A stretch of 46,785 nucleotides of DNA, taken from NCBI GenBank assembly GCA_029337695.3, contig GCA_029337695.3_4851.1. The stretch is one strand, 5' to 3'. Both the position numbers and the translations under genes were made by a program. Origin of the DNA: a phage. How positions within the stretch are numbered: position 1 is the stretch's first letter; every line of letters begins with the position of its first letter. Shown one piece after another: positions 14,085-27,201 of this stretch. A model generated the notes under the pieces. The model saw only the letters and a list, made by a program, of their open reading frames with translations, did no database searches and had not been told where the DNA came from.

Positions 14085-14594
14085 TCAGAAGGGAATATCG
14101 TCTTCGAAGTCCATCGGCGGCTCATTTACTCCTTGTGTGCTTTGCTGTTTTGGTGGCTGCTGCTGTTGTTGATTTGTTACACATCCGCCTTGAGGTTGTT
14201 GGCCTGATTGCTGGCGTGGTTGTTGCTGACCAGAATCATCACGCTTACCACCAAGCATCTGCATGACTCCGCCCATCTGTGGGATAACAATCTCAGTGGT
14301 ATATCTGTCTACGCCGTTGCTGTCAGTCCACTTACGAGTGCGTAGCTGGCCTTCTATATAAACCTGAGAACCTTTGCGAAGGTATTCTCCTGCAACTTCC
14401 GCAAGTTTCCCGAATATTACCACGCGATGCCATTCAGTCTGTTCTTTCTTTTCTCCTGTTTGCTTGTCTTTCCACTGCTCAGATGTTGCAACAGAAAGGT
14501 TGGCAATTGAAGAGCCTGATGCTGAATATTTAACTTCAGGGTCGTTACCAACTCGACCAAGGATTATGCACTTATTAATACCAATCGAAGACAT
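14085..14594 (-). CDS. ssb: single-stranded DNA-binding protein
   Basis: OB-fold-like N-terminus, Gln/Pro/Gly-rich linker and acidic C-terminal tail ending DDIPF. Confidence 0.85.
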
Positions 14595-15112
14595 TACTTG
14601 AATCTCCCGTTTTTATCTCTTAATCTGCCATTATGATTCTCTGTGGCGTGTAATGATGCGTGCTCTGACTTCGTCATAAGCATTAGGTTACTTGGATGGT
14701 TGTTTGTTTTATCATGGTCTATATGATGAACGCATTCATTGTGAAACAACCTCCTCCCAATAATGCCTTCCATAACTACGACATGCTCTCCTCTTCCTTT
14801 GTTTTCACCCATAGTTATCTCGACATAACCATTCGGTTTTACAGAGCGACCCTTGCCAACTCCTTTCTTTGATTTTGATATATTTTGCTTCCATTCTTCA
14901 GTAAACTTTCGTTTTTTACCCCTAAGTCCTGAACCAAGTCTTCCCTCTGCGGCAGCAATTCTTATTGCATCTCCTCTGCTTCTCAATATTCCGGCTTTCT
15001 TAAATCTAAACCTCAATGTTGACATGGCTATTCCTGTTTCATTGGAGATTTGAGGGATGCTCATGCCAGACAAATACATATCAAACTCATTCATATGCAC
15101 CTCCTTGTGCAA
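14594..15112 (-). CDS. HNH homing endonuclease with N-terminal HTH
   Basis: C-terminal [27 protein letters not shown]; inserted between ssb and erf. Confidence 0.75.
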
Positions 15113-15174
15113 TATAGTAATTTACAACCATTAAGTCAACTTTTAATTACTTTATTTACGCCGCGTGCCATTTA

Positions 15175-15834
15175 TCAAAATCCTTCAATTGGAGTTGGTT
15201 TATGTTCTGGTTTTTCTTCCTGCGGTTCTGGCTGCTGTGGTTGCGGTTTAGCCAGTTTGGCAGGGTTGAATGATTCGCCTGATACCATGAATTTAGCCTT
15301 CATCTCCTGATAAGCGCCAACAATAACGCGAGTTGCTGCATCATCACCACGAAATGCCTTGTATTCTTCGCCATAGATTGAAGCTAATTCTTCCATGCTG
15401 GATGCGTTGCGAATCAATGCAACTGCGTCTTTTGGTGATTTGCGAGCGGCATTACCGTCATCATCAGCCTGAGCAATACCAAACATTGCCGCGATGGAAT
15501 ATCTGCGTGCATACGTCATTGCGGAGCCATACCCCTGCGCATCCTTCTTAGCTACTGGCATTGGCATCACTGATGACATGTACTCGCCAGATTCATGCAT
15601 TATCGTTGTTTCAAGTTTAAGCACATCCATTGAATCACCATCAATGGCATTCTGGATGATTATAAGACCGTTAGCCTCAAGCGCTGGACGTATTGCATCA
15701 AGGAATGACTCAAGGTTTGCGTAATTGCTTTTCAGGTGTGGGTTTTTGGCGTTTTTCTTTGCACCACTACTCATCACCTTGCGAGCCTCAACCAGAGCCT
15801 TAATCAGGTTAGCTTTCTGTTCAGAGAAAATCAT
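15175..15834 (-). CDS. erf: Erf-family single-strand annealing protein
   Basis: 219 aa in a recombination module next to SSB and exonuclease; Pro/Gln-rich C-terminal tail. Confidence 0.6.
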   Translation of the reverse strand: MIFSEQKANLIKALVEARKVMSSGAKKNAKNPHLKSNYANLESFLDAIRPALEANGLIIIQNAIDGDSMDVLKLETTIMHESGEYMSSVMPMPVAKKDAQGYGSAMTYARRYSIAAMFGIAQADDDGNAARKSPKDAVALIRNASSMEELASIYGEEYKAFRGDDAATRVIVGAYQEMKAKFMVSGESFNPAKLAKPQPQQPEPQEEKPEHKPTPIEGF

Positions 15835-15850
15835 TTCATCACCTCACTAA

Positions 15851-16807
15851 TTATAAATTAAACTGTTTCTTGAACCATTCAGGCGTTTCCATTTCGATGA
15901 CAGGATTACCCATTGAATAACCAGGCCATGAATTGGCTTTTTTGCACGCCTTGTAAATTTCCATTGCACCATTCAACTGAATGCGACCGATTCGTAATTG
16001 CTCTTCAGTCAGGCGAATTAACGCAGGAATAAACGGCGCTTTCTTTTCCTGAACTAAAAGGTTTACCGAACGCGGTGCATGACCATATGCCGCAACAAAC
16101 ATGTCGTGCTGCATCGCCATTTTCATAAAGTAGCCAAGTCGCGCAGCATGACGGAAAAACTCATCAGGCTTGGCACTAACTGCTGTTTTGTAGTCTATGA
16201 TGTCACCACCTTTTGTCAGGCAGTCAAAACGAACCTTTGCTTTTTCTCCGTTAAGTTCGCCTAGGATTGATACTTCAGCATAAGCACCGGCAAGAAGACT
16301 GCTGTAATAGCTGTTTGCATGGATTACAGCACGCATTTGCTGAATTGCATCATAATCACCACCTTCAAGCATTTGCTTTCCAGCCGCAGCTTTTTCAGCT
16401 TCTTCGCGGATAACATCGTAAATCTTCACTGGCTCGCCAGTTGCACGAATGATTTTGATCACCTCAGATTTCGACTTCCCTGATAGTCCTTTTATTCCTC
16501 GTTCTTTCGCCCATGAGTTCATATCGGCAGTAGTTACAAGCACCGTTGGTTTCCCATCTTTGTCTTTTGGAAAATCACCTACAACCGGCATTCGTGCATA
16601 TTCCGCTTCGAAACGTTCAGGTTCAAGCAGAGCTGTATGGCTTCCCGTGCCGAAGATAAGAGCTTTTGATTGCTCATCTTCTTCGTCTTTGTAGCGCCAT
16701 GCTGCGGGGCATCTGTCATATATGTTCCACAAACCAGAACCATTAATATGCTCTGTGTCTGCGTGGTATTGCTCATTGGTTAATTCATTATTGAAATAGA
16801 CTTTCAT
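15851..16807 (-). CDS. PD-(D/E)XK family recombination exonuclease
   Basis: Candidate D...(I)DYK nuclease motif (RFDCLTKGGDIIDYKT); adjacent to erf. Start taken at MKVYF with a GAGG RBS. Confidence 0.55.
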   Translation of the reverse strand: MKVYFNNELTNEQYHADTEHINGSGLWNIYDRCPAAWRYKDEEDEQSKALIFGTGSHTALLEPERFEAEYARMPVVGDFPKDKDGKPTVLVTTADMNSWAKERGIKGLSGKSKSEVIKIIRATGEPVKIYDVIREEAEKAAAGKQMLEGGDYDAIQQMRAVIHANSYYSSLLAGAYAEVSILGELNGEKAKVRFDCLTKGGDIIDYKTAVSAKPDEFFRHAARLGYFMKMAMQHDMFVAAYGHAPRSVNLLVQEKKAPFIPALIRLTEEQLRIGRIQLNGAMEIYKACKKANSWPGYSMGNPVIEMETPEWFKKQFNL

Positions 16808-16844
16808 TGTTAACCTCACTCATCATCACGTAAATGAATCTACA

Positions 16845-17270
16845 TCAATCCACATCAAAAGGCAAGCCAAAATAGAAAAGTGTGGCTTTTTTTAGTTCAT
16901 CAAGACCGTAAGCGATGGCGGCATAATGACCAAGTCTGCACATCTCAGTTAACACAGAAGATTGCTCTTTACTTACTCTGCTTTTGCTTTTATCGCGACG
17001 CTTTGACTCAATCATCCCGCAACTGTGATTTACCCCAGGAGTCATTATCACGTTGTCGCCTATTCCAGTCTTAACTCCCATCTTCTGGCGCTTCAGCACA
17101 AACTGCACCATGCTTGATGTTCCAGTTTCGTTTGGTACATGAAACCACAGAACATCAGGAAAGCGGTGTTGCATCCATGTGCCGTAACCAATCTGTTCAG
17201 TCTCCTCTTTCGGACATTCTCCGCGATAACCGCTATCAAATACCCATATACCGCTATCAAGCTGCTTCAC
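16845..17270 (-). CDS. VRR-NUC domain nuclease
   Basis: 141 aa with HVPNETG...KRQKMGVKTGIGDNVIM fitting the VRR-NUC pattern; coupled to the helicase. Confidence 0.55.
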   Translation of the reverse strand: MKQLDSGIWVFDSGYRGECPKEETEQIGYGTWMQHRFPDVLWFHVPNETGTSSMVQFVLKRQKMGVKTGIGDNVIMTPGVNHSCGMIESKRRDKSKSRVSKEQSSVLTEMCRLGHYAAIAYGLDELKKATLFYFGLPFDVD

Positions 17271-19194
17271 TTTGTTCTCCTGTAAAATCTTTTCTGTGGA
17301 TTATGTCTCGACCTTTATCATTGATACGATGCGTGATGCGTTTTGGCGATTTAATCAATCCCGCATACATCATGAATTGCTTGGCGTTCTGGCATTTCAG
17401 AATTTTCCCAGCTATTGATTTATCATCAAGGTGAGGGAAGATGGCCTTTACCTTGAACATGTTTTTCATGTGGGTTGCTCCGCCGTAAGGGTAGAAAACC
17501 TCGTTAGCCCAGCCTTCTTTGCCATCACAACGATTAATCCAGTAGCGATATAAAATTCCCTCTCCGTCCTTCGTCAACTGGACCTTGAAGTCCATAACAT
17601 CAGCCCATTCGTTGTCGGTATACGCACGCTCATTCAGTGCCGCATTCGGGTCGCGCAAAACGTGATCGCAATGTCGGCAATAGCGCGCCGTTGGGTCGTT
17701 TTTAGTACCACATCCATCATCAAAAATGCGGATTCCGTGCTTATCAAAACCGCAACGGATGTAACTGAAAAACTCTTCGCAGCGACCATCTGGAGATAGT
17801 GCATCTTTGCCAATACAGCGTCGCGCATATGGGCTGTTCATTGTTCCGCACTTAGGACACGGAACCTGTTCGCCACTGCGTTTTGAACGTTGCGCTTCAG
17901 CCTCTTCCAGTATTGGGTCTTCATACAGCTGACCAAGCTCAAACATCGTTCCTGAGAAATCCAGAACCAAATGGTCTTCTTTATGATACCCGGCATCAAT
18001 TTGCTCTTTCTTCAGCAAGCGCATTCCGCGACCAAGCAACTGAACAAGAAGAGTGAGTGACATTATTTTTCGCAATATCACGCTTGTATCCCAAAGCGGG
18101 ATGTTGACGCCAGTCGTCAAACAACCAATCTGGAATACATACTTAATCTTGCCAGTGTATGCGTCTTTTAACGCCTTGCGTCTGGCTTTCTGTCCCATAT
18201 CCTCGGTGACGATAGCATAACTTCCTTCGGGTAAATATTTAGCCGCTTCCTGACAGTGTTTTTTGCCAGCGCATGTAATCAATACGCCGTTCCTGTTTTT
18301 AGTCAACTCCATAACCTTGAGCATAATTTTCTGCGTCAGCGTACCTTGCTCAAGGATTTCTTTTTGCATCTGCTTGAGCTGCTCGGCAGTGAAGTCCTGC
18401 GTGCCATCGCTTCCTGACGCTTCAAATGCTGACAGGTCGTAATGCAAATCATCAATATCATGCAGGCCAAAAATCGTAGGCACAAGAAACCCAATATCAA
18501 CAAGATATTTGGTGTCAATGTTTACTATTTCATGCTTCCAGTAAGCACCCTTAATCGAGTCTGTGCCACGAAACGGGCTGCCTGTGTATCCAATAACAAT
18601 GACATCGTGACCGTACTTATCCTTACATCTGCGGTTAAGTTCAGTCATGATGACGCCATATTGCGTTTCAGGACTTTCGCTTACCACGTCCTCCCAGTTC
18701 ATCTGGTGGCATTCGTCAATAAGGATATAGCGAGGGCAAAAATCTGAAAGTGCACCTTTAGAAAGAATATTACCTGAGTCATCCTTCTTATCGAAAAGGC
18801 CATTTATTATTGTTCCCTCAGTGCCAGCAATAAGAGGGTATGCCGTTGACTTTCTGCCAAGAGACGCGCTGAATAGTGAGTTTTTAACACTCAGATTCCA
18901 CAGCTCTTCCGCATCCTGCTCAATAATCTCTCCCTGACGTGCAATAACAAGCCCTTCCCAACCCATATCCTGAAAGCGCCGCGCAATCATGGCAATCATG
19001 ATCGTCTTACCAGCACCTACCGATGCCGTCACAAAACTTGGTTTCGGGTCTCTGCCAAACTTGCGGATAACTTCAGCCGTCTTTTCATAAACCAGCCATT
19101 GATATGGTCGCGGCTCAATTTCCCCTGTATGAACAACCGACCGCAATTTATCTATGTCAAGTTCCGCAATCATTGCGTCTATTTTATGCGTCAT
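17257..19194 (-). CDS. SF2 DEAD/DEAH-box helicase with C-terminal zinc ribbons
   Basis: Walker A VGAGKT, DECH box ILIDECHQM, C-terminal CxxC clusters. Confidence 0.8.
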   Translation of the reverse strand: MTHKIDAMIAELDIDKLRSVVHTGEIEPRPYQWLVYEKTAEVIRKFGRDPKPSFVTASVGAGKTIMIAMIARRFQDMGWEGLVIARQGEIIEQDAEELWNLSVKNSLFSASLGRKSTAYPLIAGTEGTIINGLFDKKDDSGNILSKGALSDFCPRYILIDECHQMNWEDVVSESPETQYGVIMTELNRRCKDKYGHDVIVIGYTGSPFRGTDSIKGAYWKHEIVNIDTKYLVDIGFLVPTIFGLHDIDDLHYDLSAFEASGSDGTQDFTAEQLKQMQKEILEQGTLTQKIMLKVMELTKNRNGVLITCAGKKHCQEAAKYLPEGSYAIVTEDMGQKARRKALKDAYTGKIKYVFQIGCLTTGVNIPLWDTSVILRKIMSLTLLVQLLGRGMRLLKKEQIDAGYHKEDHLVLDFSGTMFELGQLYEDPILEEAEAQRSKRSGEQVPCPKCGTMNSPYARRCIGKDALSPDGRCEEFFSYIRCGFDKHGIRIFDDGCGTKNDPTARYCRHCDHVLRDPNAALNERAYTDNEWADVMDFKVQLTKDGEGILYRYWINRCDGKEGWANEVFYPYGGATHMKNMFKVKAIFPHLDDKSIAGKILKCQNAKQFMMYAGLIKSPKRITHRINDKGRDIIHRKDFTGEQSEAA

Positions 19195-19269
19195 AGCAAC
19201 TAACCTTTGTTGATGTTTCTACGTCAGTTAGCTTATACTCAATCTACACCAACAATCAAGGGCCAATTT

Positions 19270-20223
19270 ATGAGATACGACTGGAAAGACATTGAGCCAA
19301 AAATGCTCGGCAACTGGCAGGCCGCCATCATGTCTATCGTCAATGTGGATAGCAGAGTTTTCAATGGCAAGCACCAGCCGTGCCCGTCATGCTCAGGCAA
19401 AGACAGATATCGCTTTGATGACAACTTCGAAAAAAAAGGCGATGGCGGTGCAATATGCAGTCAGTGCGGTTCCGGTAGCGGTATGAACTGGCTGATGAAA
19501 CTCTCCGGCATGAGCTTTCCTGAAGCACTTGAGGCGCTGGGAGGATTCCTGAACATGCACCCTCGTGAAAAACTTGAGGCAATCAGGAAGGAGATACCGA
19601 AGATAAATTACAACGATGACTTCATCACCGAGCAGGAAGTCGCCGCAATCATGGCTAAAACGACGCGTGTCGCGATGAATGAGTGGACTTTGATAAATGG
19701 TATTGGTTGCGACGTTAATGTCGTCAGAGGGAAATCTGGAGAGCTTATTGCGGTTGAGATGATGCGCGCTGACACAATGAAGCCGTGCAACGTGGCATTC
19801 ATTGGCGTGGATGGTGATGCATTCAGAACATTCTACAAAGCAGGGTACAACAAAGACTCAGCCATCAACGGTAAACTCACTCGCGGCGCGATAAGCACAA
19901 TAGGTGAAGACAACGGAAAGTTCATTTATCTTGTTTCTGATTATGCCGATGCGTGGAAATGCCATTACTTCACTGGCGCTCATGTCTGGTGCTGCTGGTC
20001 GCCGGAAAACATGTGGGAAGTGGTGCGTTCTGTTAGCGATGAGACGAAAGCACGGTTACGCTGCATAGTTAATTATAAATTTGACGAACTTTGCGCCGCA
20101 GAAAATGCAGGACTACCGGTGATGCTGCCTGATGATGCGGACACTATCAGGATGGCGAAGAGAATCAGGAGAAAGATTTATGACGCTGGCGAGTTGATAG
20201 AAAAAATGTCAGTCATCAGATAA
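19270..20223 (+). CDS. DNA primase (zinc-ribbon type)
   Basis: N-terminal CPSCSGKDRYRF...CSQCG zinc-binding motif; divergent from the helicase. Start set at MRYDWKD downstream of the promoter motifs. Confidence 0.6.
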   Translation: MRYDWKDIEPKMLGNWQAAIMSIVNVDSRVFNGKHQPCPSCSGKDRYRFDDNFEKKGDGGAICSQCGSGSGMNWLMKLSGMSFPEALEALGGFLNMHPREKLEAIRKEIPKINYNDDFITEQEVAAIMAKTTRVAMNEWTLINGIGCDVNVVRGKSGELIAVEMMRADTMKPCNVAFIGVDGDAFRTFYKAGYNKDSAINGKLTRGAISTIGEDNGKFIYLVSDYADAWKCHYFTGAHVWCCWSPENMWEVVRSVSDETKARLRCIVNYKFDELCAAENAGLPVMLPDDADTIRMAKRIRRKIYDAGELIEKMSVIR

Positions 20224-20252
20224 AAGAAACCCTCCAATCGGAGGGTTTTGTT
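20224..20252. terminator. bidirectional rho-independent terminator
   Basis: AAACCCTCC-aatc-GGAGGGTTT hairpin with T-run between convergent genes. Confidence 0.75.
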
Positions 20253-20667
20253 ATTCCTTGAACTCTGGCGCTTCAGGCCAGAAGGCTATATTTCGCAGCG
20301 ACTTACCTGTGTGATTGCACCAGTATATTCCTGAGTCATCATACTTGGCAGTAACCTTGACGCGATCAGCATCAATAATAACAACCTCCTGTCCATCTTT
20401 AGGATCGAAAAGACGCGCATCTTTCCAGTTAGCAATCTCATTAAGGGAAAGAAGGACATAACCAGGAAGATAAGCGCCGACATCAGCGATGTGAACTATA
20501 GTTCTCTCTGTTCTCTCTCCTGTGTAGTCTCCATTCCACTCATAAAGAATGATCGCGTCTCCAATCTTAAAGTCACGGTCATTCTTTCTTAGTTCCGCCT
20601 TCTTGTGTCCGGTAACTACAGGCCAGAAGTGTTCAGGTAATATTTTAAGTTCGTGTGTTTTGCTCAT
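20251..20667 (-). CDS. DUF3850 (ASCH/PUA-like) domain protein
   Basis: N-terminus THELKILPEHFWPVVTGHKKAELRKNDRDFKIGD matches the DUF3850 signature; coupled to the upstream 530-aa gene. Confidence 0.6.
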   Translation of the reverse strand: MSKTHELKILPEHFWPVVTGHKKAELRKNDRDFKIGDAIILYEWNGDYTGERTERTIVHIADVGAYLPGYVLLSLNEIANWKDARLFDPKDGQEVVIIDADRVKVTAKYDDSGIYWCNHTGKSLRNIAFWPEAPEFKE

Positions 20668-22259
20668 TACAACCCCCTCATAAATCTCATGCGCTTAACG
20701 GCAGCGGAAAGATAATTTCTAACAGTTGAGTTCATCCGCAGACCATCCCATGAACCATCACTACACATCTTAATTGCTCTTGGATTATCCCTGTCCAGCA
20801 TTAGTGGTGAATGTTTGTTCTCCTCAATAGCAAGGAGAACTTCATAAACAAATTTATCCGGCGTTAATGTGATGTTGTTCGAGTCAGCAGAATTGATTAT
20901 CTTCTCAACTCTGTCACGGCACAGCTTGTTCTTTATAACAGACAAGTAAGGCGTTTTAATGAATGCCTGTGATTCACAAATTCGCTTTATTTTTTCAACA
21001 ATATTCGACCACTCAGTATTCTCAAGCCCATCAAATGCCTGTTCACCCTCAAGGAATCTTTTCAGCCCCGAGAGGTGTTCAAGAACAGTGAGATAACCCC
21101 ACTCGATATGCTCCGTCGTAACTGATGGTGTCATTCCCTGACGACTTGACAGATCGGTATACGCCGCCAGAGTTGCAAGATCGACAATCATTAGACCCAT
21201 GCGAGGGATAACATCACCAACAACACCATCGCAATCACCAAGCTCACTTTCCAGTTTCATGGACAGAGATCTGTGCAGTTTTTTCGCATTATCATCAGCC
21301 CATACAACGTTAGTTTTCGCGGTAAGAACCCTACCTTTCCACTCATTGATTATTTTTCTTGAAAGCGTACCACTCACTTCCACATCCTTCATCGCTGGCA
21401 TTTCCTCACCAGCAAGATGCCCAAGCTGGAACAGTACGCGCCCCATACCGCCATCTTTCTGCCATGAACGCGCAGCATCTATTCCCTGCTCTGGCGTGAC
21501 AGTAATCAGCGGAACAAATTTTGCGTTTTCAATTCCACCGTCTTTTGTTGCAATTTCGTACTCATTCATTGCCGACTTTAGCGCTCTCCCAACGCTGTGG
21601 TCCATCATCGCAAGGCGCTTATAATCTATGACTCCTTTCCCATCATCGCCACCAGTAAGTGGCACTATCCATCCCTCAGCACTTGCTGCAGCCATGATGC
21701 GTTTTGGGTTTTGTTCCCACGTAAGGTTTTCAAGCAACTCCTTGATTATTGGTCTGTTAGGAACCCACACGCCGCCATCAGTTAGGCCTCTATACCACGC
21801 CATAGTACCGCCAAGATATGCATTGCGCGGGTTGTTCCAGTCTTCAAGATGTTGCTTGTCATCGTTAACAACGTAGAGCAAAGACCCGCCTCCAGCAATC
21901 AGGTCCAACTGCATCTGTTTCGTCGAGGTTGATTTGGATGCGCAAACTCTGGACCCTATTCCCAGTGCATTGGCATATGCCCTGACGAAACTCACCGGGG
22001 CGCCCTTACCTGCACCAGAGCGAGCTACCAGAAATATGCCAGTATTGCAGATACTACCTGTTGGACCAATCAAGTATCGTCCAGCCATCGCCTGAGCAAG
22101 ACCCAAAGCGCCAGTTAAACGATATCTTCCCCCGCCCTCACGGCGCTCAAACCCCCTTGCGATCTCATCCATAAACTCACCAAGTGCACCGGGAGCCTCC
22201 CGCTTTATGCCCATAGCCAGAGACTCAAAATCAATTGAACTCATCAATACACCCTCCAT
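20667..22259 (-). CDS. large hypothetical protein with degenerate P-loop-like motif
   Basis: 530 aa; VARSGAGKGAP (Walker A-like but Gly at the S/T position) and LLYVVNDDKQ (Walker B-like); no family recognised. Confidence 0.5.
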   Translation of the reverse strand: MEGVLMSSIDFESLAMGIKREAPGALGEFMDEIARGFERREGGGRYRLTGALGLAQAMAGRYLIGPTGSICNTGIFLVARSGAGKGAPVSFVRAYANALGIGSRVCASKSTSTKQMQLDLIAGGGSLLYVVNDDKQHLEDWNNPRNAYLGGTMAWYRGLTDGGVWVPNRPIIKELLENLTWEQNPKRIMAAASAEGWIVPLTGGDDGKGVIDYKRLAMMDHSVGRALKSAMNEYEIATKDGGIENAKFVPLITVTPEQGIDAARSWQKDGGMGRVLFQLGHLAGEEMPAMKDVEVSGTLSRKIINEWKGRVLTAKTNVVWADDNAKKLHRSLSMKLESELGDCDGVVGDVIPRMGLMIVDLATLAAYTDLSSRQGMTPSVTTEHIEWGYLTVLEHLSGLKRFLEGEQAFDGLENTEWSNIVEKIKRICESQAFIKTPYLSVIKNKLCRDRVEKIINSADSNNITLTPDKFVYEVLLAIEENKHSPLMLDRDNPRAIKMCSDGSWDGLRMNSTVRNYLSAAVKRMRFMRGL

Positions 22260-22573
22260 ACGCGCAAGAATTTACCCTGGATAACACCATGTTTCACCGT
22301 TAACACAGCACCCACCCTGTCAGCCTCAAATTTTAGCGCCTTCTGAAGTGACGTCATTGTCATCTGAAAACCTCGCTCTATATCGTATGCGTAGCACCCA
22401 TCTCTTCCACCAATCAAAATTGAAGTTGAATACCCGTTCTCAAAGTAAAACTGACACCCATCAGGAGCGGTAAGATTATTTATCACGTCGTGAGCAAGCG
22501 ATGTCGTAACAGGGAATATCGGCGCGCAACTCATACTCACCTCACTCAACTCGCTTAATATGCAAAACTTCAT
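22244..22573 (-). CDS. hypothetical protein
   Basis: 109-aa ORF (possibly starting at an internal Met) overlapping its neighbours. Confidence 0.4.
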   Translation of the reverse strand: MKFCILSELSEVSMSCAPIFPVTTSLAHDVINNLTAPDGCQFYFENGYSTSILIGGRDGCYAYDIERGFQMTMTSLQKALKFEADRVGAVLTVKHGVIQGKFLRVWRVY

Positions 22574-22790
22574 CGAAATATGAGCACGTTCTGAATTTCA
22601 TCCCGAAATCCTCACCAACCCTTCCGAGACACGCGCGAAATCTTTCAACAGACAGCCCTTTATCTGCAATATCCTCATAAGAAATCGAATTAACCTGACC
22701 AACATCAATATGTTTTGCAACGCGATACACGAACTCCATCTTTGAACCGTCACGATACATTTTGTTTCTCATAGTAACCTCCATCCGCAT
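22542..22790 (-). CDS. hypothetical protein
   Basis: 82-aa ORF, first gene downstream of the iteron region on the minus strand. Confidence 0.4.
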   Translation of the reverse strand: MRMEVTMRNKMYRDGSKMEFVYRVAKHIDVGQVNSISYEDIADKGLSVERFRACLGRVGEDFGMKFRTCSYFDEVLHIKRVE

Positions 22791-22940
22791 CCTGTTAGCA
22801 ACTATAGATAAAAAATAAAATTAACGCAACACAAAACAGGGCTAACCAGCAACAACAGCTACCACACCTAACAACTGGTCAGACCACCATCTCGTATCTG
22901 ATGTATGTGGATGGTTCCCGTCGTTCAATTTGCACTCGAT

Positions 22941-23299
22941 TTTTACCTAATTTACCGTATATTTATTGGTCAGTTTTTTGCGTAACTAATTGATTTATAT
23001 GGTTTTACCGGTTTTACCGGAGCTCTAAGGAGTATTTTCATCATTGAGAGTAGTAGTATATTAATTGGTCTAATTTTTAAATAACCCTAATAAAATCAAT
23101 ATATTAATATAAGAAAGTAACTTACTTACTTATATAGGATTTACCGGGTAAAACCGGTAACTCCTCCGCAGCCCGCGTCATTACTGGATTGATTTTTACC
23201 ACCTGTAGGTAAATACAGTAGTTTTTAAGTCAGGATTGTTTTTGTAAGATGTTGATTACCGGTACTTTATTTGAAAAACCGGGATTTACCGGGTTTTTG
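22941..23299. repeat. AT-rich iteron array (TTTACCGG-type), candidate origin or regulatory region
   Basis: About 600 bp without ORFs; copies at 22941-22960, tandem GTTTTACCGG x2 at 23001-23020, inverted TTACCGG/CCGGTAA at 23141-23160, palindrome 23195-23215, TTACCGGTA at 23255-23264, ACCGGG repeats at 23275-23299. Confidence 0.6.
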
Positions 23300-23370
23300 T
23301 GGTGTGATTGATAATCGCGCAATTAGTCATGTTTCACCAGAGCTCACTGATGCGACACCTGAAAATCATA

Positions 23371-23400
23371 TTGACGTAGAATCACAACTGATGTAGATTG
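23371..23400 (+). promoter_or_regulatory. putative early promoter with two inverted copies of the AATCTAC motif
   Basis: TTGACGTAGAAT (23371-23382) and TGATGTAGATTG (23389-23400) upstream of the first + early gene. Confidence 0.45.
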
Positions 23401-23429
23401 AACTCATCGAAACAAACGAGGGTGAAGAG

Positions 23430-23615
23430 ATGAAAGAGGAAAGCACGTACGACATCGACCAGATGAAGTTGTTCAGCGATATATGCATGGCATTGTCACA
23501 ACAGGTTCCAAGCCTTCCTGCTGACACGCGTTCAAATGCCATCATTGATGCAGCAAACATGATTTGCGAGGCTTATGCGATGAGTGAAGATGAATACAAG
23601 GCTTTGAAGAAATGA
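23430..23615 (+). CDS. hypothetical early protein
   Basis: 61-aa ORF, first of a coupled series of small ORFs. Confidence 0.4.
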   Translation: MKEESTYDIDQMKLFSDICMALSQQVPSLPADTRSNAIIDAANMICEAYAMSEDEYKALKK

Positions 23616-23707
23616 CAGGCGCAACACTCGAACTTATCGCCAGTCTGGTTATCGTGGCATTCATCATTATCGCAGTGGCAGTTTCCAAGTCGGGGTATAA
23701 GGAGTAA
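23612..23707 (+). CDS. small hydrophobic peptide (31 aa)
   Basis: MTGATLELIASLVIVAFIIIAVAVSKSGYKE; ATGA overlap with the upstream stop. Confidence 0.35.
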   Translation: MTGATLELIASLVIVAFIIIAVAVSKSGYKE

Positions 23708-23795
23708 CAAAATGAGCAACTGGCATAACGAACACATCATGCAGTGGTATCGCCGTCGCATTAAGGCAATCATTAACTCTTATGAGGTTTAACAA

Positions 23796-23978
23796 ATGGC
23801 AAAGACAATCTATCGCCGCGAGAAACTGGAACCAGAACTCGGTCACGTTGGCGCGCAGCACTTTATGAGCAAGCAGGCACGCAATGCAATGGAATCTACC
23901 CGCGTGAATCGCGTTGTGCGCGTGTTTAATGGCGAAGGTAAGCGCAGAGTAATGGATGAGCTGATTATCGTGTTCTGA
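23796..23978 (+). CDS. hypothetical protein
   Basis: 60-aa basic ORF. Confidence 0.4.
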   Translation: MAKTIYRREKLEPELGHVGAQHFMSKQARNAMESTRVNRVVRVFNGEGKRRVMDELIIVF

Positions 23979-24014
23979 CCTCGATTCAGCTACCTTATTT
24001 TTAATGGTGATGAT

Positions 24015-24248
24015 ATGGCAAAAGTAAAAACATACGAGTTCTGGATAGTGCAGAACAAAATGTATGACAGCAAAACAATCAATCGAGCGCGCTGGTGGAA
24101 TAAGTGGTTAATCCTGTACAACTGCATTGTGCTGGCAAAGTGCAAATTCAAAGCGATTGACATCACTGATGAGGATGCACTCACAATCGCAAAGATTGAG
24201 TTTGAAGAAGATGGTCATTACGAAGAAATTATGGGGGTTAGGGTATGA
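24015..24248 (+). CDS. hypothetical protein
   Basis: 77-aa ORF. Confidence 0.4.
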   Translation: MAKVKTYEFWIVQNKMYDSKTINRARWWNKWLILYNCIVLAKCKFKAIDITDEDALTIAKIEFEEDGHYEEIMGVRV

Positions 24249-24580
24249 GTGAAGTTAAGATATACACATTGGTTATGGGCGAAAAAGAGATTCTTAATTT
24301 TAAGCATGGAGAAGAGCTGAGGGTCGGAGAGTTCGTTAAATACAAGGACTATGCAGCGCTCGAAGCTAAATGCGATGAGCTACTTAAAGAAATTAAAAAC
24401 ATGCGGGACCAAGCCCTTGATGATGGATGTCGAATTGCAGAACTTGAAGAGGCGTTGCGAGATAAACAGGCGCTTATTCCTGATGGGCACGACACGACCG
24501 CACAGCAATTCGAAAGTCTAAGCAACCACAAGCATCACTTCATCAATGGCACTTGCGTAGAGTGCCTGAAAAGTGAATAG
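24245..24580 (+). CDS. hypothetical coiled-coil protein with C-terminal Cys/His cluster
   Basis: 111 aa; stop/start overlap with the previous gene; HKHHFINGTCVEC at the C-terminus. Confidence 0.45.
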   Translation: MSEVKIYTLVMGEKEILNFKHGEELRVGEFVKYKDYAALEAKCDELLKEIKNMRDQALDDGCRIAELEEALRDKQALIPDGHDTTAQQFESLSNHKHHFINGTCVECLKSE

Positions 24581-25200: not shown

Positions 25201-25647
25201 ATGGCTAATCCAAACCCTGTCATGAAATTTTCCTCTGAATACCAGCCTGCTGGCAGAGGATTAAGCTACAGAAACAGGCTTATTGAAGCATTAAAGCGAT
25301 GCGGGCTTGGCGAGGAGGAATTCCTTGATGCATTCATCAGGACGTCAATCAGGATGACGGAGGAAAACCCGACTCAGGGCGTGCAAATGCTGAAGGAAAT
25401 ATTCCTGCGTATCAGCCCGGTACAAAAGAGTATGGCACCTCCGGTTAATTTTAAATACCGCAAAGATGCCACGCCAGTTGAGCAGATAGAGGACGTCATT
25501 CAATCTGTTTCCAGTGGGGAACTCCCAATTGATGTGGCGTCGCAGGTTGTGTCTATGATTAAGGTTGGTCTTGACGTGAAAGAATTAACCGAACTCGCCG
25601 CGCGCCTTGAGCGACTGGAGAAATTGCTGGAGCAGCAGAGTGCGTGA
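25201..25647 (+). CDS. terS: putative terminase small subunit
   Basis: 148-aa ORF directly upstream of the large terminase, with C-terminal coiled-coil; assignment by position. Confidence 0.45.
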   Translation: MANPNPVMKFSSEYQPAGRGLSYRNRLIEALKRCGLGEEEFLDAFIRTSIRMTEENPTQGVQMLKEIFLRISPVQKSMAPPVNFKYRKDATPVEQIEDVIQSVSSGELPIDVASQVVSMIKVGLDVKELTELAARLERLEKLLEQQSA

Positions 25648-25776
25648 TTTCATTTACTTTGTTTGTGGATGTGTATGGATGCCAGTCTATGCAAATGCCG
25701 ATACATTAATTAAACAAGCTGCCTGCTGGCTTGTGGTGTTGATTCTTGCTATTTATTCAGTATTCAGGAGTCGTTA

Positions 25777-27201
25777 ATGGCTCGTAAACGCCTCTCCGCA
25801 CTGGCAATCGAAAAACTGGAAGCGCAGATTGATGACGCGATGACTGATGTTGCAGAGTCCGCCATCTTCGGCATCTGCGACATGCAGAAGAACGTCATTA
25901 AGCGGTTAAGGATGACAGCTACTGGCGTTGATGATGTGACTAATGCAACCACTCATGCCGATCACCTGATTCCCGCAAAACTTGAACGCCTGCTTTATCC
26001 GAAGCGTTTTAAGTTTGTCTACGGTGGTCGCGGGTCAGGGAAAACGAGAACTATTATCACTATCCTTACTGAAAGGGCAAGATTTCGACCTGACCGCTTC
26101 GCCTGCTTTCGTGAGATTCAGCAATCCATTGAGGATTCAAGCTATCAGGAGCTGGTGGATGAGATAGCCCGCAAGGGAGAGTCGGCAGAGTTTCGCGTTG
26201 TCAACAACGAGATAACACACAAGAAGACCAAAGCGAAGTTTCGCTTCAAAGGGCTGTATCGCAATCAGACAACAGTTAAGGGTTTTGCTGGCATTACCGT
26301 CGGTTGGGTAGAGGAAGCAGAGAACGTCAGCCAGACAAGCTGGGATATTCTTGTACCTACCATCCGCGCCGCTAATTCCGAGCTGTGGTGCTCATTCAAC
26401 CCCAACAAGGAAACAGACCCGACATGGAAGAACTGGATTGCTCCATATCACTCACGGATGGTTGATGGCATATTCGAAAATGATGAAATTCTGATTATCG
26501 AATGTAACTATTCCGACAATCCGTGGTTCTGGGATACGCCGCTGCCATCAGCCATGGAGCAAATGAAGCGAACTGATTACGACCGTTATCGCTGGATTTG
26601 GATGGGAGCATTCAACAAGCGCAGCGACGAGCAGGTTTTTGGTGGCAAGTGGCGCATTGATAACTTCGAGGTCAAACCTGAATGGCACGGGCCATACTTC
26701 GGGATGGACTTCGGGTTTTCCACCGATCCTACCGCAATGGTTGAAGTGTACATCGAAGAGTTACCAGGTGGACGGCGTAACATTTATATTAATCGCGAGT
26801 ACGGCAAAGTTGGCCTTGAAATTACCGATACGCCAGCTGCGATGGAGCAATCATTTCCGATGGCTAAGCGCGCACGATGGTATGCCGACTGTGCGCGACC
26901 AGAAACCATCAGCCACATCAAGCGTTCTGGATTCGATATTCACCCGTGCACAAAATGGCCCGGGAGTGTTGATGATGGCGTAACGTGGCTGCGCGGTTGT
27001 GACAGCATCATCATTCACGAGAGATGCAAGGAAATGCAGAATGAGGCGGCGATGTACAGCTATAAGGTTGATAAGCTGACCGGGAATGTACTGACTGATA
27101 TTGTTGATGCATTTAACCACTTCTGGGATGCGGTTCGTTACGCCCTCAATGACCACATCGTTCAGCGCGGAAGCGGAATGCTAATCCGCCGCAGGCGATA
27201 A
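25777..27201 (+). CDS. terL: terminase large subunit
   Basis: Walker A YGGRGSGKTRT, Walker B-like VGWVEEAE, C-terminal nuclease-like region. Confidence 0.85.
   Translation: MARKRLSALAIEKLEAQIDDAMTDVAESAIFGICDMQKNVIKRLRMTATGVDDVTNATTHADHLIPAKLERLLYPKRFKFVYGGRGSGKTRTIITILTERARFRPDRFACFREIQQSIEDSSYQELVDEIARKGESAEFRVVNNEITHKKTKAKFRFKGLYRNQTTVKGFAGITVGWVEEAENVSQTSWDILVPTIRAANSELWCSFNPNKETDPTWKNWIAPYHSRMVDGIFENDEILIIECNYSDNPWFWDTPLPSAMEQMKRTDYDRYRWIWMGAFNKRSDEQVFGGKWRIDNFEVKPEWHGPYFGMDFGFSTDPTAMVEVYIEELPGGRRNIYINREYGKVGLEITDTPAAMEQSFPMAKRARWYADCARPETISHIKRSGFDIHPCTKWPGSVDDGVTWLRGCDSIIIHERCKEMQNEAAMYSYKVDKLTGNVLTDIVDAFNHFWDAVRYALNDHIVQRGSGMLIRRRR

Follow-up and report, generated by a model that had tools for sequence, protein, structure and literature searches.

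The repeat block considered here occupies positions 22942-23294 of a 46,785-bp stretch of phage DNA (the window), lies between divergently transcribed genes and is likely, as judged from its sequence and that of its relatives, to be an iteron-type origin of bidirectional replication. Among characterised systems, the closest design by analogy is the origin of the Staphylococcus aureus pathogenicity islands (SaPI). These origins consist of 6-12 short iterons that are split by an AT-rich centre and oppositely oriented on its two sides (PMC9371898). The cognate Rep protein is a loader-free hexameric AAA+ helicase of the MCM-related (pre-sensor II insert) clade; its C-terminal winged-helix domain reads the iterons, and origin and Rep are mutually specific and differ between islands (PMC9371898). 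In the staphylococcal cassette chromosome mec (SCCmec), Cch2 is likewise a self-loading helicase that binds iterons via its C-terminal domain (PMC7581432). An origin has also been predicted in the lytic siphophage Abitsa of Enterococcus (Efquatrovirus), where seven 10-bp iterons surround an AT-rich region (PMC13517437). It adjoins the gene of a self-loading helicase, and GC skew was given as support (PMC13517437).

The window block resembles the SaPI origins in its 11 repeat copies, 119-bp centre, inverted inner pair, adjacent MCM-like helicase and lineage-specific repeats. At least two iterons stand on each side of the centre, their inner pairs have opposite orientations, and the initiator candidate is an AAA+ helicase with an MCM-like fold. 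However, the SaPI origin is located directly downstream of rep, whereas the window block lies upstream of its operon, between divergent promoters and ~700 bp and two small genes away from the helicase start. The window further differs by its integration host factor (IHF) consensus sites and one or two additional small proteins, by belonging to a virulent phage of a Gram-negative host, and by a helicase without detectable sequence similarity to SaPI Rep. The SCCmec arrangement differs in that three iterons are described, downstream of the gene and without a flanked AT-rich centre, and in that the helicase families are DUF927 and Primase_Cterm. Abitsa shares both architecture and reasoning with the window; in contrast, its helicase is a recognisable homologue of SaPI5 PriRep5, and neither cassette exchange nor an IHF element was reported there.

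Several other replicons share single traits with the window. In the compact origins of pSC101 and R6K gamma, iterons are found together with an AT-rich unwinding element and an IHF site, and the window also combines iterons, an AT-rich centre and IHF-consensus sites. The Rep proteins of such plasmids, winged-helix dimers or monomers, bring in DnaA and DnaB from the host, whereas the window block has no DnaA boxes and the phage encodes its own helicase and primase. In the satellite phage P4, the single alpha protein acts as primase, helicase and origin-binding protein that recognises octamer iterons, and crr, a second repeat cluster, is needed in cis. An analogous PrimPol-PriCT-helicase fusion is found in two relatives of the window (IMG/VR contigs L025 and L030), but the window itself has no second TTACCGG cluster and its primase is a separate gene of DnaG type. 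Lambdoid phages swap the O/P initiator and ori-lambda together as a mosaic module, much as candidate initiator and putative origin are exchanged together in the window cassette. In lambda, the iterons are part of the O gene, whose product is not a helicase, whereas the window iterons are intergenic. The plasmid examples belong to the enterobacterial iteron origins (reviewed in PMC4980987).

Support for the origin reading is comparative and structural. We favour it because the genome's least stable DNA lies between the repeats, because they avoid both neighbouring promoters, because they are exchanged with the adjacent helicase gene while promoter, terminases and primase stay constant, and because the block heads a replication and recombination cluster at the GC-skew minimum. 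Traits of iteron origins in general are found as well, namely a repeat cluster above chance, an adjacent AT-rich stretch and a nearby co-varying initiator gene. The sequence-only reading had proposed a candidate origin here with a regulator array as fallback, and every computational test run favoured the former. The block contains the following iterons and centre:

22942-22959, plus strand: left outer iteron pair, degenerate direct copies TTTACCTAA and TTTACCGTA, 9 bp apart.
23004-23020, plus strand: left inner iteron pair, TTTACCGG T TTTACCGG, 9 bp apart; left arm of the inverted repeat.
23021-23139: AT-rich centre, candidate DNA-unwinding element, with short AT palindromes and a run of three ACTT units.
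23140-23160: right inner iterons TTTACCGGGTAAAACCGGTAA, one plus and two minus copies; right arm of the inverted repeat.
23194-23212, both orientations: inverted iteron pair TTTACC-N7-GGTAAA.
23255-23294, plus strand: right outer iterons ATTACCGGTA, AAAACCGG and TTTACCGGG.

Counted on both strands of 22935-23305, the TTACC core occurs 11 times, compared with 2.2 copies in local dinucleotide shuffles, none of which (0 of 2000) attained 11. The repeats listed in the sequence-only reading are real, although its figure of at least seven was an undercount. Exact copies of TTTACCGG number six in the window (0.76 expected), four of them in 23004-23292, while TTACCGG is present 13 times, with six copies within 23005-23292 of this 371-bp block and seven in the other 46.4 kb. 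Four iterons on the left are all direct (TTACC starts 22943+, 22952+, 23005+ and 23014+) and are separated by the 119-bp centre from seven of mixed orientation on the right (23141+, 23147-, 23156-, 23196+, 23208-, 23256+ and 23286+). The palindromes claimed for the region include a perfect 14-bp inverted repeat (23005-23018 and 23147-23160), which is formed by the innermost iteron pairs and brackets the centre. In addition, AAAACCGG and TTTACCGGG form a weak hairpin of A-tract, CCGG and T-tract. A 30-nt direct repeat (GTATATTWATTGGTC..., 77% identity) was also noted at 22957-22986 and 23056-23085; its first copy directly follows the left outer pair and the second lies ~35 bp past the inner pair.

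Megablast with 22000-24500 of the window matched 154 phage records, the nearest being the E. coli siphophages ASO78B, Bas81, ZCEC08, Bas77 and Bas80 at 87-95% identity. The elements of the block are conserved in these five close relatives (for the left outer pair, in the four closest). The iterons are kept even in Bas77 and Bas80, although the intergenic DNA of these two phages is unrelated over its left ~150 bp. The left inner pair is conserved in six of the six aligned phages, and the TTTACC-N7-GGTAAA pair is invariant in six relatives except for one spacer base in ZCEC08.

The AT-rich character of the region also stood up to analysis, with a GC content of 0.40 at 22501-23000 and 0.37 at 23001-23500, compared with ~0.47 for the window, and an AT content of 67% at 22935-23305. 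Within the centre, 23044-23143 is the AT-richest 100-bp segment of all 46,785 bp (81% AT), and 23043-23142 is the least stable one by nearest-neighbour energy, with a dG of -102.7 against a mean of -138.7 and a standard deviation of 6.9 (a distance of ~5 standard deviations). An equivalent 80-bp stretch of 81-89% AT is present in every relative compared. The run of three ACTT units (ACTTACTTACTTA, 23121-23133) at the right edge of the centre is kept in the six aligned phages, with a single-base change in Bas77/Bas80. A search for the IHF consensus WATCAANNNNTTR returned three sites in and around the centre:

22983-22995, minus strand: IHF-consensus site 1, AATCAATTAGTTA, matching WATCAANNNNTTR.
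23094-23106, plus strand: IHF-consensus site 2, AATCAATATATTA, inside the AT-rich centre and invariant in six relatives.
23245-23257, minus strand: IHF-consensus site 3, AATCAACATCTTA, abutting the next iteron.

These sites, all within 22983-23257, make up three of the five matches in the window, the remaining 46 kb containing two. The number expected locally is 0.04, and none of 2000 local shuffles reached three. An IHF-consensus site was found in the corresponding regions of 13 out of 15 representative relatives, and the IHF core AAAATCAAT is the 9-mer that recurs in the largest number of repeat-type groups (five of the nine compared).

Candidate promoters are located on both sides of the block:

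22801-22829, minus strand: candidate leftward promoter P_L, TTGCGT-17-TATAGT, position-weight score 10.1, a consensus match only.
23371-23399, plus strand: predicted rightward early promoter P_R, TTGACG-17-TAGATT, sigma-70-like, score 13.3.

The P_L candidate is conserved in the four closest relatives and would drive the operon of small proteins and helicase. P_R is the strongest sigma-70-like site of the region, and its exact pattern is present in 23 IMG/VR contigs. From its first base on, it is conserved at 80-94% DNA identity in relatives with different repeats. Both promoters face away from the repeat block, with gaps of ~77 bp on the P_R side and 113 bp on the P_L side and no overlap, and sigma-70-like matches inside the block are at chance level (4 versus 4.0 expected). 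Divergent transcription, as described in the sequence-only reading, was confirmed by the minus-strand genes ending at 22772 and the plus-strand genes starting at 23430.

In more distant relatives, the gene order and the layout of repeats, AT-rich centre and repeats are kept, but the repeat sequence is different. Besides the TTTACCGG type of the window, the following repeats were recorded:

CCCCACG: DS8, Bas78, ST1UNAM and six IMG/VR contigs.
GGGATAA: Skate and relatives, including locus L010.
GGGAAGC: loci L025 and L015.
AAATGCCA: locus L030.
GGGCA: locus L032.
GGGCGAA: loci L016 and L014.
AGTTCCCG: loci L033, L039-43 and L047.
AGTTACCGG: loci L034-36 and L044-46.

Unrelated repeat sets thus occur in the same architecture in at least eight lineages, and repeat type and helicase cluster go together in 30+ loci, with the L025/L030 pair as one exception. 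For instance, all nine CCCCACG loci share a 99%-identical 517-residue DUF3987 helicase, the window group has its own 525-residue protein (93-99% identical), and the Skate group has its own large protein. Within the window helicase family, sub-clades at 100%, ~58% and ~50% identity carry TTTACCGG, AGTTCCCG and AGTTACCGG, respectively, which are related variants; this looks like co-divergence of a protein-DNA pair. DS8 and Bas78 have the same repeats and the same large protein with a non-homologous small gene in between. Bas77 and the window share their repeats and a 94%-identical helicase, while the promoter-proximal small protein is just 31% identical. In L025, L030 and L015, a terminator-like hairpin (AACCAGC-TTAACC-GCTGGTT) followed by TTCGTGTTT was observed between the repeats and a shared AT-rich block; no equivalent of it was found in the window.

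Pairwise alignment delimits the exchanged segment, and the primase next to it is largely constant:

20684-23370: candidate exchangeable replicon cassette, comprising the helicase, two small genes, P_L, iterons and AT-rich centre.
19207-20223, plus strand: DnaG-type primase (zinc ribbon and Toprim), kept whatever the cassette type; presumably works with the helicase.

A blastn comparison with DS8 gave 92% identity up to position 20683, where the helicase gene has its 3' end, and then no further homology until 23371, at which the P_R -35 element begins. The junctions of L034 are the same. The helicase gene, together with the small genes, P_L and the repeat block, therefore forms the unit of exchange. 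Homology starts at ~23366-23372 (the P_R -35 element) in many of the 154 phage records, and such sharp mosaic junctions suggest recurrent recombination at fixed points. No plasmid carrying the cassette was matched in PLSDB. The primase was considered as the specificity partner of the repeats and rejected, since it is ~95% identical between window and DS8 and 92-97% identical in most loci whatever their iteron type; the identity is 88% in L032 and 58-60% in L033, L036 and L037.

The proposed initiator is encoded by the large gene of the cassette:

20667-22244, minus strand: 525-residue MCM-like AAA+ helicase (Walker A motif GAGKG), which is proposed to act as initiator and as replicative helicase.

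Only a large profile search and a fold search were informative about its identity. The fold is MCM-like according to the latter, and the former retrieved only 51 relatives from 1.84 billion representative proteins. Four of ten remote profile matches carry DUF3987, one of them together with Prim-Pol and PriCT_2; DUF3987 denotes an MCM-related helicase family of SF6. Residues G79, K80 and R269 are invariant in the family. The window protein thus has a remote DUF3987 link via intermediates, Walker A and B motifs and an MCM-like fold. Among its counterparts, the DS8-type protein is a clear DUF3987 member (Pfam E 1.3e-34), and the Skate-type large protein is clearly homologous to the window family (hhalign probability 100%). 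The 'DNA primase' profile of PHROG matches the 525-residue protein via its helicase part. No Pfam or NCBIfam match and no significant PDB-sequence match was obtained for this protein; homology to SaPI Rep or Cch was not detected in PDB sequences with either the single helicase sequence or a profile. In the structural model, a C-terminal module at residues ~434-493 has the order helix-helix-helix-strand-strand and is followed by a conserved basic helix, and is possibly winged-helix-like and a candidate for iteron reading. A PriCT-DUF3987 protein has been shown to be a 5'-3' helicase (PMC11724360).

Two small genes separate the helicase gene from the block:

22542-22772, minus strand: 76-residue small protein, first leftward gene; candidate accessory or origin-binding factor.
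22244-22534, minus strand: 96-residue paralogue of the 76-residue protein.

The 76-residue gene has a GGAGG sequence 7 nt before its ATG at 22772. Both proteins belong to one family that ends in (K/W)R(V/I)x and occurs beside the repeat block in nearly all relatives. The AlphaFold2 model of the 76-residue protein (pLDDT 92.8) shows the order helix-strand-helix-helix-strand-strand. A fold search with it gave no significant match, winged-helix proteins being mixed with unrelated small alpha/beta folds, and the protein may be called winged-helix by topology only. In the Shigella phage DS8 (locus L006, 2823-3095) and four similar contigs, a 90-residue AP2-domain protein replaces the small (K/W)R(V/I)x-tail protein. 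These loci keep the same CCCCACG repeats and the same helicase.

The window is probably a complete or near-complete genome of a virulent E. coli siphophage of the Skatevirus cluster, as judged from its relatives and from the genome size of the Bas77-81 cluster. According to the BASEL paper, Bas77-81 cluster around the genus Skatevirus, and genomes in this cluster measure 46-48 kb (PMC11990801). The leftward operon encodes, in this order, the 76-residue protein, its 96-residue paralogue, the 525-residue protein and an ASCH-domain protein, and is followed by the plus-strand primase gene. Beyond the latter, the minus strand encodes a SNF2-type helicase, exonuclease VIII, an Erf-like annealing protein, an HNH endonuclease and SSB. 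Positions 14085-22772 (minus strand) and 19207-20223 (plus strand) together make up a complete replication and recombination module. The repeat block is positioned at the head of this cluster (SSB, Erf, ExoVIII, SNF2 helicase, primase). The cumulative GC-skew analysis suggested along with the sequence-only reading placed the minimum within 22501-23000, coinciding with the repeat region. No DNA polymerase was found among the window proteins scanned, a scan that was not exhaustive for the window; presumably, the host replicase is therefore used for elongation. To the right of the block, terminase genes occupy 25201-27201, at a distance of only 2-3 kb.

As stated in the sequence-only reading, no ORF (open reading frame) of 60 or more codons lies wholly inside 22791-23429. 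ORFs of at least 30 codons wholly inside this interval are limited to three, with 30, 30 and 41 codons, and a 64-codon minus-strand ORF (23366-23560) intrudes at the right edge only. In relatives, ORFs of 30-47 codons that are annotated as hypothetical proteins sit over the iterons, the AT-rich centre or P_R:

Window 23271-23396, plus strand; L001 7271-7396; L004 2498-2608 and 2704-2820; L006 3356-3490: small ORFs overlying the block.

Such ORFs over iterons, centre or P_R are probably annotation artefacts. A known non-coding RNA was rejected as an explanation of the region because the Rfam covariance models gave no match above threshold, the only two matches being sub-threshold (E about 0.8-0.95).

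Several observations weigh against the origin reading or its details. Transcription switches direction at the same place, which confounds the GC-skew minimum. Pfam does not place the window helicase in DUF3987 (PF13148), and a comparison of the window family with the single DS8 helicase by hhalign gave a probability of 0.24%. In the C-terminal module, the third helix, which is the predicted recognition helix (PDKFVYEVLLAIE), is not basic. DnaA boxes and GATC sites or clusters are missing from 22900-23330, yet this is neutral for a self-loading system. In the Salmonella phage Skate (L007, 3120-3420), all GGGATAA copies point in one direction on both sides of the centre; the dyad arrangement is thus not universal, and the loading geometry may differ between cassette types. 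An exception to the pairing of helicase and repeats concerns L025 and L030, whose 777-residue PrimPol-PriCT-helicase fusions stand in place of the 525-residue helicase and are 93% identical, yet their repeats are GGGAAGC and AAATGCCA, respectively. Residues 301-720 of the two fusions are ~100% identical, all changes being located in the first 300 and the last 57 residues, and the small proteins of the two loci are only 39% identical. These differences point to the small proteins or the helicase termini as carriers of specificity in this lineage. On the question of which protein would read the iterons, the three sub-clades, the DS8/Bas78 pair and Bas77 lean towards the helicase, whereas L025/L030 leans to the other side.

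For binding, bending, melting, loading and the choice of the repeat reader, we infer the following scheme. Host RNA polymerase would transcribe from P_L the genes of the two small proteins and the 525-residue helicase. The helicase would bind the (T)TTACCGG iterons on either side of the 119-bp centre via its C-terminal winged-helix-like module, and the small proteins would possibly assist or replace it in iteron recognition. Host IHF, at up to three consensus sites, would bend the DNA, the AT-rich centre would melt, and helicase rings would load on the single strands. The phage DnaG-type primase would then prime synthesis and the host polymerase would extend it. In a bolder version, which we regard as speculative and rather doubtful, virulent phages of the Skatevirus cluster would carry 'plug-and-play' replicon cassettes, each made up of an MCM-like helicase, one or two small proteins and an origin of iterons and AT-rich DNA, with at least nine mutually exclusive specificities and fixed junctions (helicase 3' end and P_R -35 element). 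Nothing but host IHF would be common to all of them. Origin recognition would there fall to the small (K/W)R(V/I)x proteins and not to the helicase; they would recognise the origin and hand the MCM-like ring to DNA, as a bacterial-virus counterpart of ORC/Cdc6-MCM.

Among the other explanations, an operator array is unlikely but fares best. The repeats would bind a phage transcription factor (e.g. the 76- or 96-residue protein) that controls the divergent early promoters, without any role in initiation. Although the region does sit between divergent promoters, the repeats at 77 and 113 bp from them neither overlap nor abut a -35 or -10 element, and the 80-94% conservation of P_R extends to relatives with different repeats. 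The small-protein family adjoins the block in nearly all relatives and has a winged-helix-like order of secondary structure, but its fold search gave no significant DNA-binding match, DS8 does without the family and has the same repeats as Bas78, and the proximal small protein of Bas77 has diverged to 31% identity with the repeats unchanged. The L025 and L030 repeats, which differ along with the small proteins over an identical helicase core, speak for an operator array; the extreme instability of the centre and the dyad of the inner repeats are left unexplained by it.

A dual function, in which the iterons serve as origin and also as autoregulatory sites that limit expression of the initiator operon, as in iteron plasmids, appears quite improbable. 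Those plasmids are established examples of autoregulation through iterons or inverted repeats close to them (PMC4980987). The window repeats are located upstream of the initiator operon and P_L is part of the exchanged cassette, but the 113 bp between the nearest iteron and the P_L -35 element are far for direct occlusion.

A pac site recognised by the small terminase subunit, with IHF bending the DNA as at lambda cos or P1 pac, is very improbable. Repeats are combined with IHF sites at both of these packaging sites, and the terminase genes of the window are close by; however, the cassette boundary leaves them outside. The repeats do not co-vary with the terminase, since phages with TTTACCGG and CCCCACG repeats have nearly the same enzymes (window versus DS8: putative small terminase, residues 1-126 of 148, 98% identical; large terminase 98%), and the pac site was rejected on these grounds. 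The chance that the repeats are a functionless compositional artefact of an AT-rich spacer is negligible, for although AT-rich intergenic DNA is prone to short repeats and the promoter-like matches in the centre are at chance level, the observed counts were not reached in any of 2000 shuffles, the repeats are conserved where their flanks are not, and unrelated repeat sets share one architecture in at least eight lineages.

An annotated replication origin is missing from all five phage records in which the region is present, and the literature searched describes none. The design of the proposed iteron origin is itself standard; new is its occurrence in a phage group without a described origin, and its value thus lies in annotation and as an experimental system rather than in concepts. 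Salmonella phage seszw is a Skatevirus that was used for CRISPR genome reduction (PMC9825161). If the origin reading is true, it would provide a defined minimal replicon for small, easily engineered siphophages of E. coli and Salmonella (BASEL Bas77-81, seszw), and it would explain a hotspot of mosaic exchange in their genomes. The cassettes would then also offer at least nine orthogonal pairs of helicase and origin, a natural set with which DNA recognition by MCM-like self-loading helicases could be studied.

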